Positions 56,701 to 64,000 of a DNA stretch of 64,000 nt are shown here, in pieces (the stretch's first letter is position 1; every line of letters begins with the position of its first letter). Position numbers: made by a program. The stretch lies in NCBI RefSeq assembly GCF_056712565.1, contig NZ_CM160072.1; one strand, given 5' to 3'.

Positions 56701-59700
56701 TGATTCGCCAGTCCGAGATAGTTGTTGGCACAAAAGTTAATGACGTGGCTTCCATCAGCCACAGTGATATCTGCTTGCTGCGCAGACGTAATAATGCGCT
56801 CTTCTTTAAACAACCCTTCCGCCCGTGCGGTTTCCAGATCGTTGGTTAACTGCTGATAAAATTCTCCACGCATTGCGATTCTCCAGACAGGGCAAATTCC
56901 AGCACATATTACCCAAACTTATAGGTCGCGACGAGATGACGCGTTAACACTTCTGCAAAATTCAGGATAAATAACGTCCAGCCCCCTCACTTTTGGTGAA
57001 TGGCTGAAGCCAACGTCATGTAGTGATATGATAGAAGTATTCGTGTCTGAGATTGTCTCTGACTCCATAATTCGAAGGTTACAGTTATGATCATCGTTAC
57101 CGGCGGCGCGGGCTTTATCGGAAGCAACATCGTTAAAGCCCTGAATGATAAAGGCATCACCGATATTCTGGTGGTGGACAACCTGAAAGACGGCACCAAG
57201 TTTGTGAACCTGGTGGATCTGGATATCGCGGACTATATGGATAAGGAAGACTTCCTGATCCAGATTATGGCTGGCGAAGAGTTCGGCGATGTCGAAGCGA
57301 TTTTCCACGAAGGCGCGTGCTCTTCCACCACCGAGTGGGACGGCAAGTATATGATGGATAACAACTATCAATACTCCAAAGAGCTGCTGCACTACTGTCT
57401 GGAGCGCGAAATCCCGTTCCTGTATGCCTCTTCCGCAGCCACTTACGGTGGACGCACCTCCGACTTTATTGAATCCCGCGAATATGAAAAACCGTTGAAT
57501 GTCTACGGTTACTCAAAATTCCTGTTTGATGAATATGTTCGCCAAATCCTGCCTGAAGCGAACTCACAGATTGTTGGCTTCCGTTATTTCAACGTTTATG
57601 GACCGCGTGAAGGCCATAAAGGCAGCATGGCGAGCGTCGCTTTCCATCTCAACACCCAGCTTAATAACGGTGAATCACCGAAGCTGTTCGAAGGTAGCGA
57701 GAACTTTAAACGTGACTTCGTCTATGTGGGCGACGTGGCAGATGTAAACCTGTGGTTCCTGGAAAATGGCGTTTCCGGCATCTTCAACCTCGGCACCGGT
57801 CGTGCGGAATCCTTCCAGGCAGTAGCAGATGCTACGCTTGCTTATCACAAGAAAGGCCAAATCGAATACATTCCGTTCCCGGATAAACTGAAAGGCCGCT
57901 ACCAGGCGTTCACTCAGGCAGATCTGACGAATCTGCGCGCGGCGGGTTACGATAAACCGTTCAAAACCGTTGCCGAAGGCGTAACGGAATACATGGCCTG
58001 GCTGAATCGTGACGCATAAGAGCTCTGCATGAAAATACTGGTGATCGGCCCGTCTTGGGTTGGCGACATGATGATGTCGCAAAGTCTCTATCGCACGCTC
58101 CAGGCGCGCTATCCCCAGGCGATAATCGACGTGATGGCACCGGCATGGTGCCGTCCATTATTATCGCGGATGCCGGAAGTTAACGAAGCGATCCCTATGC
58201 CTCTCGGTCACGGAGCGCTGGAAATCGGCGAACGCCGCAAACTGGGTCATAGTCTGCGTGAAAAGCGCTACGACCGCGCCTACGTCTTACCTAACTCCTT
58301 CAAATCCGCATTAGTGCCTTTCTTCGCAGGTATTCCTCATCGCACCGGCTGGCGCGGCGAGATGCGCTACGGTTTACTCAACGATGTACGCGTGCTCGAT
58401 AAAGAAGCCTGGCCGCTAATGGTGGAACGCTATGTCGCGCTGGCCTATGACAAAGGTATTATGCGTACCGCACAAGATCTGCCGCAGCCATTGTTATGGC
58501 CGCAGTTGCAGGTGAGCGAAGGTGAAAAATCATATACCTGTAATCAATTTTCGCTTTCATCAGAACGTCCGATGATTGGTTTTTGCCCGGGTGCGGAGTT
58601 TGGTCCGGCAAAACGCTGGCCACACTACCACTATGCGGAGCTGGCAAAGCAGCTGATTGATGAAGGTTATCAGGTGGTTCTGTTTGGCTCGGCGAAAGAT
58701 CATGAGGCGGGCAATGAGATTCTTGCCGCTTTGAATACAGAGCAGCAGGCATGGTGTCGGAATCTGGCGGGAGAAACACAGCTTGATCAAGCGGTTATCC
58801 TGATTGCAGCCTGTAAAGCCATTGTTACTAACGATTCTGGTCTGATGCACGTTGCGGCGGCGCTCAATCGTCCGCTGGTTGCCCTGTATGGACCAAGCAG
58901 CCCGGACTTCACACCACCGCTATCCCATAAAGCACGCGTGATCCGCCTGATTACCGGCTATCACAAAGTGCGTAAAGGTGACGCTGCGGAGGGTTATCAC
59001 CAGAGCTTGATCGACATTACTCCCCAGCGCGTACTGGAAGAACTCAACGCGCTATTGTTACAAGAGGAAGCCTGACGGATGCGGGTTCTGATCGTTAAAA
59101 CATCGTCGATGGGCGATGTTCTCCACACGCTGCCCGCACTCACTGATGCCCAGCAGGCAATCCCAGGGATTAAGTTTGACTGGGTGGTGGAAGAAGGGTT
59201 CGCACAGATTCCTTCCTGGCACGCTGCCGTTGAGCGAGTTATTCCTGTGGCAATACGTCGCTGGCGTAAAGCCTGGTTCTCGGCTCCCATAAAAGCTGAA
59301 CGCAAAGCGTTTCGTGAAGCGCTACAAGCAAAGAACTATGACGCAGTTATCGACGCCCAGGGGCTGGTAAAAAGCGCGGCGCTGGTGACGCGTCTGGCGC
59401 ATGGCGTAAAGCATGGAATGGACTGGCAAACCGCTCGCGAACCGTTAGCCAGCCTGTTTTACAATCGTAAACATCATATTGCAAAACAGCAGCACGCCGT
59501 AGAACGCACCCGCGAACTGTTTGCCAAAAGTCTGGGCTATAGCAAACCACAAACCCAGGGCGATTATGCTATCGCACAGCATTTCCTGACGAACCTGCCT
59601 ACAGATGCTGGCGAATATGCCGTATTTCTTCATGCAACAACCCGAGATGATAAACACTGGCCGGAAGAACACTGGCGAGAATTGATTGGTTTACTGGCTG

Positions 59701-62700: not shown

Positions 62701-64000
62701 TCGTTCCAGGGCTTCGTTACGCCAACATAATGAATCAGCTTAGTATCATCGGTAATGGTCTTTTTATAATCTTCATCGCTTTTATTTTTTAACTCATAGT
62801 CAATGCCATAAAAGCAATCATAATCGCCGCTAATAAAAATACAATGACTAAAGAACAGAATATTTAAAATATCCTGATCAAGGCATTTATATTTCGTGTG
62901 CTGCGGGTCACTTGCCAGCATAGCAATGGCTTTATTCATAAAATCATTTTTCGCCCATGCTTCAAGCTGCAGATATACTACACCGGCGTTGAAATAATTC
63001 CCTGGAAGTCCCTCTATAGCCAGACGCTTCGCAGGTTTTTCCTGCATAAAAGGCACATCTTTAATAACAGCCGCGAACTTATCGCCATCAAAATTAATAT
63101 CAAGCAATCCAGCTAATGAGCCTTTACATATGACATCAGCATCGATATATAACAGATTTTCAATAGTTTCACTCAGATACTGGAACGCAACTAAACGGAA
63201 GAATGTTGCATAAGACCACTGTTTCAGGCTGGGGAAGATATCAATAAAGGCACTGGATACTTTATAAATTCTTACTTCAACGTTAGCATTTTTGCTGGTA
63301 AAAGCATTAACACGTTGTAGATAATCTTCATCAATGTAGTCAGTAAAGAGATGAAACTTAACCGCAAGGTCCGGGTTATGCATAACAACTGATTGCATAG
63401 ATACTGCCGCACCAAATAAAAAGTTGCGGTCAATACCGTAAGCGATATTTAACACACGATCGGTGTTAGCAATTTCCCCAGAGACAGCGACTTCAGTAAT
63501 ACTCTCAGCTAATAAATCCATGTTGGTTCCGTTTTGACTGTGTGGTTTACGCTTTGCCTTTTAATTTTTTAATAAATTTGCGTAGTTTGGTTCTGTAGAT
63601 TACTGAATAGTAGCCATAATCTTTTATTTCGTTGGCAATACCCAGGTGACGTTCCATGGCCAGACGATCACGGGCTTTCCGCTCTGCCGTACAGCTTTTA
63701 CCGGAGAGGTCAATTATCCTGACACCATCTTTACTAACGATAAAGTTACCCCGGTGTGGGTCGCCCGATAGCATATTTAAGGCATGCAATTTTTCCATTG
63801 AAGCCTTAATTTCTGCTTTAACATCTTCTGGAATAATCGGCATATCATTGAGCTCTACGCCCTCGACATACTCGATAAGCATGATAAAAACACTGGCATA
63901 GTTGAAAATTTTACGCTCAGCCAGAAAATAAAAATCATTAGGAAAAGTAAGACCTGCACTTCTGACACGATCGGTTTCAACGATCAAATTCTGATAGTAG

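Follow-up and report, generated by a model that had tools for sequence, protein, structure and literature searches.

Gene content of the waa region

The window analysed here is a stretch of 64,000 nucleotides of Escherichia coli DNA, and all positions refer to it. Towards its right end the gene kbl on the minus strand is followed by a gap of 213 bp, by hldD, waaF and waaC on the plus strand, by a hairpin, and then by waaL, a GT2 gene, a GT8 gene and waaY, all on the minus strand. The ORF of kbl (55677..56873, glycine C-acetyltransferase; Aminotran_1_2, 1e-78; annotated in an identical genome) bounds the waa region on the left and points away from hldD. The three genes on the plus strand are hldD or rfaD (57087..58019, ADP-L-glycero-D-manno-heptose 6-epimerase; Epimerase, 4.2e-45), waaF (58029..59075, heptosyltransferase II; Glyco_transf_9, 2.2e-88) and waaC (59079..60059, heptosyltransferase I, 326 aa), all three supported by their ORFs, by Pfam and by annotation in an identical genome. 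On the minus strand, waaL (60129..61382) is followed by waaV (61428..62411, a GT2 beta-1,3-glucosyltransferase of 327 aa; Glycos_transf_2, 3.6e-39) and by waaW (62493..63521, a GT8 alpha-1,2-galactosyltransferase of 342 aa according to its RefSeq product name; Glyco_transf_8 and 8C, 2.1e-71). The last gene, waaY for heptose II kinase, is cut by the window end, so that only its 3' two-thirds are present (63547..64000; Pfam WaaY, 7.4e-81, profile positions 86-229); it extends to ~64239, and the full 230-aa RfaY is found in an identical genome. All Pfam domains of the locus proteins scored above the curated cutoffs. The GC content falls from ~50-55% to 31-39%, and the drop starts at the waaC/waaL junction.

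Many sequenced E. coli, among them ATCC 11775, S88 and ST95 strains, matched positions 56000-64000 with 100% identity, and the best 20 matches were all 100% identical over 8 kb. The corresponding genes in an identical genome carry the RefSeq names rfaD, rfaF, rfaC, O-antigen ligase, GT2, UDP-galactose-(galactosyl) LPS alpha1,2-galactosyltransferase and rfaY, with GT8, waaO, rfaP, waaG and rfaQ further along. Since a public genome with 100% identity carries these ORFs as annotated genes, their occurrence by chance is not an issue.

The first-pass annotation had described this arrangement as a layout of R1/R4 type, and the ORFs and their strands were indeed found where it had placed them. It had also set the layout apart from that of K-12, correctly so, as waaL of MG1655 is the next gene behind waaC and has the same orientation.

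The O-antigen ligase gene

Judging from its sequence, the ORF at 60129..61382 is the R1 allele of waaL, coding for an O-antigen ligase of 417 aa, and it stands last in the long waaQ operon. The initial identification of this membrane protein had been made dependent on a Wzy_C domain, and Pfam found the domain in residues 197-349 (2.5e-17; 63.5 bits vs a cutoff of 31.7). The protein has ~10-12 hydrophobic segments and matches the solved WaaL from Cupriavidus metallidurans (PDB 7TPG, E 9.4e-13), which is likewise polytopic, contains Wzy_C and has the Arg/Arg/His positions that are kept in the window protein. In K-12 WaaL the residues R215, R288 and H338, as well as the motif H-[NSQ]-x9-G-x-x-[GTY], are functionally important. 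R211, R284 and H331 of the window protein aligned with these three residues, and H331-N332-x9-G342-I-P-G345 aligned with the motif positions. Overall identity to K-12 WaaL was 30% (E 1e-43), and within the WaaL family the window allele is only 30-35% identical to the K-12 and R4 ligases; such an allele-specific sequence fits different core acceptors. Deletion of waaL is reported to lead to truncated LPS in ST95 strains of serotype O1:K1:H7, which may carry this or another allele, and K1-encapsulated isolates of serotype O1 from ST95 and ST59 have the R1 core (PMC11237799).

The waaC/waaL junction

A hairpin with a perfect stem of 15 bp and a loop of 6 nt (UGAAAUAAAAUCAGC-UUCCUU-GCUGAUUUUAUUUCA) is centred in the convergent waaC/waaL spacer of 69 bp. 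It occupies 60085-60120 and is thus slightly longer than the 60087..60118 given when it was first noticed between the convergent operons. AUCAGC/GCUGAU forms the core of the stem, and each strand has an A-tract on one side of this core and a U-tract on the other. The predicted folding energy was -19.4 kcal/mol on the plus strand (z = -6.9) and -18.9 kcal/mol on the minus strand (z = -5.3), and none of 200 shuffled controls folded as well. The divergent R1 strain TW10598 has the very same hairpin, while the hairpins found where the operons converge in other core types are unrelated to it. From its structure, we consider that the inverted repeat is most likely a bidirectional intrinsic terminator of both operons. 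The terminator efficiency is uncertain, since the U-tract lies within the outer stem, with no U-run after the full 15-bp stem on either strand; the G+C-rich core comprises only 6 bp.

The last ~27 codons of waaC, from ~59978, are core-type-specific, and the gene product has 326 aa in the window vs 319 aa in K-12. Homology with the K-12, R2 and R4 alleles ends at one shared point within waaC (...GTAGGGCTCC), and position ~59978 thereby marks the left recombination boundary shared by the variable cassettes.

Assignment of the core type

The first-pass annotation had left the choice between R1 and R4 open and had pointed to PCR typing of the core. We ran this typing in silico with the primers and the scheme of the 2025 LPSTyper paper (PMC13293308). 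Primer R1-F matched exactly at 61811-61829 in waaV and primer R1R4-R at 62633-62652 in waaW, giving together a product of 842 bp, as published for R1. Even when up to 2 mismatches were allowed, none of the R2, R3, R4 and K-12 core primers matched the window, the markers waaX (R4), waaK (R2), waaD (R3) and waaU (K-12) were absent from the window by primer search, and the survey of ORFs and Pfam domains found no GT25 ORF in the region. The layout thus stands as it was described, while the ambiguity in the type is resolved to R1, with R4 excluded by the in silico PCR and by the presence of GT2 vs GT25.

The gene waaV is the R1-defining gene. It codes for a beta-1,3-glucosyltransferase, and the Glc it adds bears the O antigen in R1 (PMC3526765). 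A comparison of the GT2 ORF with WaaV and WaaX had been suggested at the outset; the R4 counterpart proved to be an unrelated GT25, and the ORF was identified as waaV via the published R1-F primer site. NCBIfam has no specific WaaV model, and the window GT2 matched there only generic or unrelated GT2 equivalogs, far below the cutoffs, which did not separate R1 from R4. The primer site, the position and published work are therefore the basis for the name WaaV. NCBIfam has no model for WaaL either, and the window WaaL was without a match. A cluster look-up, made with queries that were off by one residue, placed WaaL and WaaW in generically named clusters and gave no match for the GT2 protein. 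At the DNA level, waaV was present in 1833 and waaW in 2525 of 5426 complete E. coli genomes; waaW is common to R1 and R4.

Beyond the window edge, waaT-waaO-waaP-waaG-waaQ and the ops leader were seen in genomes identical over 56000-64000, and in one of these, ATCC 11775, the ops element (GGCGGTAGCGTG) lies 54 nt upstream of waaQ. The canonical full R1 gene set was present in ATCC 11775 and in three other sampled R1 strains. The visible gene content, order and strands are the same as in the R1 prototype locus, with no difference detectable in the distal four genes; the prototype strain is F470 (Heinrichs et al. 1998, as cited in PMC3526765). Near-identity with K-12 (MG1655 b3617-b3632) extends over kbl, hldD, waaF and most of waaC; waaY occurs in both, and both have a convergent junction with a hairpin. 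In K-12, however, the operons converge between waaL and waaU, and the outer core is encoded by waaU/Z/J/B/S in place of waaV/W/T. Taken together, we put the probability at about 95% that the left half of a standard R1 core-type waa (rfa) locus of E. coli is present here, and none of the observations spoke against it. Loci of this kind were seen in ExPEC strains such as S88, in ST95 isolates and in the type strain.

The kbl-hldD gap

The gap between kbl and hldD (56874-57086) measures exactly 213 bp and contains no htrL, as the first-pass annotation had stated; its statement that K-12 has htrL in this place was also right (MG1655 b3618). htrL (yibB) is a low-GC accessory gene, and HtrL represents a protein family associated with LPS loci. 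The K-12 gap includes ~1.2 kb of low-GC DNA which is lacking in the window, and htrL itself has 32-38% GC vs ~50% in the flanks. In alignments with K-12 and five other strains the gap fell into three parts: 56874-56977 is near-identical to K-12, ~56978-57036 is allele-specific and loosely homologous to the hldD-proximal promoter region of K-12, and 57037-57086 is the conserved hldD leader. The sequence TGaTATGAT at 57024..57032 on the plus strand resembles an extended -10 element and reads TGgTATGAT in the htrL-carrying alleles, being conserved in 6/6 aligned alleles. We tentatively note it as a candidate promoter element for hldD-waaFC, although a consensus promoter scan of the kbl-hldD gap gave nothing at threshold and did not call the TGnTATGAT element.

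Of 5426 complete E. coli genomes, 3465 or about two thirds had the short gap, called at a coverage of at least 80% of the gap query, while htrL was present in 1959. The htrL-less gap is therefore the majority state in E. coli, and K-12 represents the minority state. Among R1 genomes, about 1693 were without htrL and 140 with it (~92% without); among non-R1 genomes the numbers were about 1772 vs 1819, which corresponds to an odds ratio of ~12. The htrL-less state and the R1 cassette, which are 3 kb apart, thus show a strong but incomplete linkage. The absence of htrL as a part of the R1/R4 architecture was rejected, as R1 strains with htrL exist (TW10598 and the 140 genomes), and so was a tie of this absence to R1/R4, as strains with the K-12 core and with R2 are also found without htrL. 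An R4 strain without htrL was found as well. The two allele classes carry different sequences of ~60 nt proximal to the hldD promoter. The polymorphism could be non-neutral, either through a different regulation of the synthesis of heptose and the inner core, e.g., by heat-shock control, or through a core modification by HtrL that is dispensable in, or incompatible with, R1, but we regard this as improbable; simple physical linkage together with population structure fits the htrL and R1 data equally well.

Alternative explanations

An R4 locus, in which WaaX adds beta-Gal instead of the beta-Glc added by WaaV, would have an identical order and orientation of genes with waaL last in the waaQ operon, and it would share waaW and the R1R4-R primer site, both common to the two types. 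The R4 locus also has in common with the window the convergent architecture, waaY and the breakpoint at ~59978 in waaC, and the R4 example which we examined is likewise without htrL and has a gap of 213 bp. However, R4 has a different hairpin, and at the position of the 327-aa GT2 waaV it carries waaX, a GT25 of 257 aa without similarity to the window protein. Its WaaL is only 35% identical to that of the window, the R4-F primer site is present in the R4 locus and lacking in the window, and the R1 amplicon of 842 bp was obtained exactly from the window. This makes R4 almost inconceivable here. The idea that only one gene sets R1 apart from R4 was also rejected, given the 35% identity in WaaL and a divergent block of ~2.6 kb (~59978-62590).

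The R1 assignment could also fail beyond the window if its waaL-V-W end were joined to a different set of genes in a hybrid or non-canonical locus, for the window stops inside waaY and the proximal genes are out of view. Hybrids have been described, e.g., ECOR46, K-12/R2 hybrids and the R1/R4 kind (PMC13293308), and the window does differ from the ATCC 11775 record, as xylR is intact here and frameshifted there. Such arrangements are nevertheless rare, since the primers typed 99% of 4,549 genomes, with a handful of non-canonical arrangements (PMC13293308). The best 20 matches are 100% identical over 8 kb, and the one examined among them, ATCC 11775, carries the full canonical R1 set, as do the three other sampled R1 strains. 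We consider a hybrid very unlikely, and we give about the same small weight to the view that the missing htrL is a recent lineage-specific deletion which affects the expression of hldD-waaFC. The ~1.2 kb missing relative to K-12 does include most of the 303-bp htrL-hldD intergenic region with the K-12 hldD promoters. The short allele is, however, spread over R1, R2, R4 and K-12 core types, and the TGnTATGAT element and the leader are kept in both allele classes. In addition, the ~60 nt by the indel differ at many positions between the classes and are near-identical within each, which points to old haplotypes rather than to a fresh deletion, and the low GC of htrL suits the acquisition of a cassette no less than the loss of a gene.

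Proposed functioning and relevance of the locus

In the standard R1 locus proposed here, hldD-waaF-waaC would form a short inner-core operon for the synthesis of ADP-L,D-heptose and the addition of Hep I and Hep II, with rightward transcription probably starting in the 213-bp kbl-hldD spacer. The long waaQ operon (waaQ-G-P-O-T-Y-W-V-L), of which only a part of waaY and waaW, waaV and waaL lie inside the window, would converge on it. It is expected to start outside the window at an ops/JUMPStart leader, and from such a start RfaH antitermination is expected for the distal genes, a requirement inferred for this strain. According to the roles known from the literature, WaaW would add the terminal alpha-1,2-Gal, WaaV would attach to Glc II the beta-1,3-Glc side branch which defines R1 and bears the O antigen, and the polytopic WaaL of 417 aa would ligate the undecaprenyl-PP-linked O antigen to the core in the periplasm. 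The two operons would meet tail to tail at the A/U-flanked hairpin of 15 bp, which likely ends both, and htrL would simply be absent from this haplotype, as is common in E. coli.

The strain is predicted to make the R1 LPS core. This type is more common than any other in ExPEC, NMEC and APEC strains and has relevance for phage receptor use, core-directed antibodies and work on O-antigen glycoconjugates. An R1 waa cluster with an htrL-less gap is already known, and the first-pass finding is correct but ordinary; the locus is of textbook kind, can be typed with existing tools and matters little beyond annotation. A mildly useful by-product is the count by which the htrL of K-12 belongs to a minority state, loosely coupled to the core type.

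Gene content and core type of the waa locus

The earlier observation of a waa locus at the right end of the window was confirmed, and its interpretation is supported when sharpened to core type R1. The ORF list gave the same order, strands and 213-bp gap as the first-pass annotation: kbl (55677-56873, minus strand), the kbl-hldD gap (56874-57086), then hldD (57087-58019), waaF (58029-59075) and waaC (59079-60059) on the plus strand. These are followed on the minus strand by waaL (417 aa, 60129-61382), waaV (327 aa, 61428-62411), waaW (342 aa, 62493-63521) and a waaY fragment (63547-64000), which continues past the window edge; complete waaY would extend to about 64239. 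Pfam assignments, all with E-values well beyond curated cutoffs, were Epimerase for hldD (4.2e-45), Glyco_transf_9 for waaF (2.2e-88) and waaC (2.4e-81), Wzy_C for waaL (2.5e-17), Glycos_transf_2 for waaV (3.6e-39), Glyco_transf_8 with 8C for waaW (2.1e-71) and WaaY for the fragment (7.4e-81). A further LPS-core gene, waaH (yibD, 53369-54403, minus strand), encoding a GT2 UDP-glucuronate:LPS(HepIII) glycosyltransferase, adjoins tdh-kbl on the left.

Many complete E. coli chromosomes, among them those of the type strain ATCC 11775, S88, ST95 isolates and EV36 derivatives, match all 8001 bases of positions 56000-64000 at 100% identity. The RefSeq annotation of ATCC 11775 runs kbl, rfaD (hldD), rfaF, rfaC, O-antigen ligase family protein, GT2, UDP-galactose-(galactosyl) LPS alpha1,2-galactosyltransferase, rfaY, GT8, waaO, rfaP, waaG, rfaQ, with the divergent waaA-coaD coming after rfaQ, and is the canonical waaQ-G-P-O-T-Y-W-V-L order. 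All features of this locus are already described in the literature and are routinely typed.

The LPSTyper primers R1-F (waaV) and R1R4-R (waaW) yield 842 bp, while R4-F in waaX yields 380 bp with the same reverse primer (PMC13293308, 2025). Core-type PCR typing, proposed earlier as a check, was run in silico. R1-F matched exactly at 61811-61829 (plus) and R1R4-R at 62633-62652 (minus), giving the 842-bp R1 product; none of the R2, R3, R4 and K-12 primers matched the window with two mismatches allowed. The R4 locus of RIVM_C037791 has a convergent layout like that of the window, but carries a 257-aa GT25 gene at the position of the 327-aa GT2, and comparison of these two proteins gave no similarity. 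R4-F was present in the RIVM_C037791 locus only, not in the window, and the two WaaL proteins were only 35% identical. Core type R4 was rejected on these differences together with the R1 product, so that of the R1/R4 layout first proposed the architecture stands and the type narrows to R1.

Among 5426 complete E. coli genomes, waaV DNA was found in 1833 and waaW DNA, common to R1 and R4, in 2525. R1 thus makes up 34%, in line with the 35.5% published for 4,549 genomes (PMC13293308). The waaW search also returned three matches on plasmids, and an IS1B element disrupts waaW in strain N1420 (NZ_CP176489.1).

Cassette boundaries and the ligase

The block divergent between the window and R4 extends from about 59978, in the waaC 3' end, to about 62590, in the waaW 3' end. 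The left breakpoint, ...GTAGGGCTCC, falls at the same nucleotide against the K-12, R2 and R4 alleles, marking a recombination boundary that these types share within a conserved gene. The final ~27 codons of waaC (59978-60059) belong to the core-type-specific cassette, and because the breakpoint lies within the gene, WaaC has 326 aa in R1 but 319 aa in both K-12 and R4. The hldD-waaC genes have about 50-55% G+C and the stretch from waaL to waaO 31-39%, a drop that is the usual signature of an exchangeable outer-core cassette.

The Wzy_C domain, whose absence had been named as an argument against an O-antigen ligase, was found at residues 197-349 of the 417-aa membrane protein, which has about 10-12 hydrophobic segments and matches 7TPG, the WaaL structure solved from Cupriavidus metallidurans (E = 9.4e-13). 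Identity to K-12 WaaL is 30% (E = 1e-43); R211, R284 and H331-N-x9-G-x-x-G align on K-12 R215, R288 and H338, which are functionally important residues. WaaV adds beta-1,3-Glc on Glc II, and the R1 O antigen extends from that Glc (PMC3526765). K1-encapsulated ST95 and ST59 isolates of serotype O1 have the R1 core, and waaL deletion in ST95 strains leads to truncated LPS (PMC11237799).

The hairpin between the convergent operons

The inverted repeat at 60085-60120, slightly longer than first annotated, forms a perfect stem of 15 bp with a 6-nt loop and is centred in the 69 bp that separate the stop codons of waaC and waaL. Its folding energy is -19.4 kcal/mol on the plus strand (z = -6.9) and -18.9 kcal/mol on the minus strand (z = -5.3), and 0 of 200 shuffles folded as well. 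An A-tract and a U-tract border the AUCAGC/GCUGAU core, so that on each strand UUUUAUUU follows a short G+C stem. This is the form of a classic bidirectional intrinsic terminator. Folding thus bears out the hairpin claimed earlier between convergent operons, from the form of which we infer termination. The hairpin is identical in the R1 strain TW10598, whose waaV is ~97% identical to that of the window. Sequence-unrelated hairpins, each the type's own, occur at the convergences waaC/waaL in R4 (L008 locus, 5787-5813, -14.6 kcal/mol), waaL/waaU in K-12 (L002 locus, 10222-10249, -15.6 kcal/mol) and waaL/waaK in R2 (L003 locus, 13541-13570, -21.2 kcal/mol). A type-specific hairpin at every convergence point supports a functional role, putatively in termination.

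In a genome identical to the window over 56000-64000, waaQ is preceded, 54 nt upstream, by the ops element GGCGGTAGCGTG; this places the R1 ligase gene last in an operon that should depend on RfaH. In K-12 the ligase gene is on the hldD operon, whereas in R1 it is at the distal end of the waaQ operon, a known architectural difference.

The kbl-hldD gap and htrL

As stated in the first-pass annotation, htrL (b3618, minus strand) separates kbl from hldD in K-12; in MG1655 these two genes are 1435 bp apart. In alignment, 56874-56977 of the gap is near-identical to K-12 and the hldD leader (57037-57086) is identical, while ~56978-57036 is loosely homologous to the K-12 stretch immediately upstream of that leader, with GGCTGAAG and TGnTATGAT conserved and many other positions differing. 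The extra K-12 DNA amounts to ~1.2 kb of 32-38% G+C. Among the 5426 genomes, htrL DNA was found in 1959 and the short gap in 3465, together all genomes with a match. The absence is thus real relative to K-12, but it is the majority state of a common polymorphism, not a peculiarity of this locus.

Neither is it part of the R1/R4 architecture, a reading rejected on the mixed combinations across strains. The gene is absent from R1 loci of BE2-5, RIVM_C040348 and ATCC 11775 but present in that of TW10598; it is also absent with a K-12 core in Z135-3, with R2 in C21 (gap allele 84% identical) and with R4 in RIVM_C037791, and present in K-12 MG1655. O157:H7 Sakai carries htrL. A chimeric query (700 bp of K-12 htrL, 1400 bp of conserved waaF-waaC and 700 bp of R1-specific waaC-tail/hairpin/waaL), for which 80% coverage is reachable only by genomes with both htrL and the R1 cassette, retrieved 140 genomes. 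R1 loci accordingly divide into ~1693 without and 140 with htrL, and non-R1 loci into ~1772 and ~1819 (odds ratio about 12). Such a strong association is to be expected in a clonal species when two loci are separated by 3 kb, but it is not a rule.

In this stretch (window positions 56978-57036, about 5880-5940 of the K-12 locus), htrL-positive alleles were identical to one another beside the indel, and htrL-negative alleles were alike among themselves and distinct from these. Two allele classes in the ~60 nt upstream of the hldD leader therefore indicate old haplotypes, not a recent deletion. C21 has a third, 84%-identical version of this stretch, and its rfaD is annotated as longer (981 bp). 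In PKF8 (NZ_CP156813.1) matches were limited to the final ~179 bp of K-12 htrL-hldD DNA and to 48 bp of the short gap, which may represent a third arrangement of the kbl-hldD junction. A pan-genome comparison already includes htrL among variable accessory genes (PMC8303582), and the HtrL family is associated with LPS/LOS loci and uncharacterised (PMC4172580).

Other observations in the window

An intact 392-aa xylR ORF (3439-4617, plus strand) is present in the window, whereas the ATCC 11775 record marks the gene as frameshifted; despite the identity over 56000-64000, the window would thus derive from another strain or from another version of the assembly. Between lldP and yibL that record (L009) has a 4.75-kb YadA-like trimeric autotransporter gene (8542-13293), the window counterpart of which would lie at about 36700-41460, and then a pseudogene with an internal stop. 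An Rfam scan of the whole window gave no match within the waa region; elsewhere naRNA4 (RF02564, 32598-32675, plus strand) matched at gathering score with 81 bits, and ES036 (RF02751, 9357-9399, minus strand) marginally passed the cutoff with 38.9 bits.
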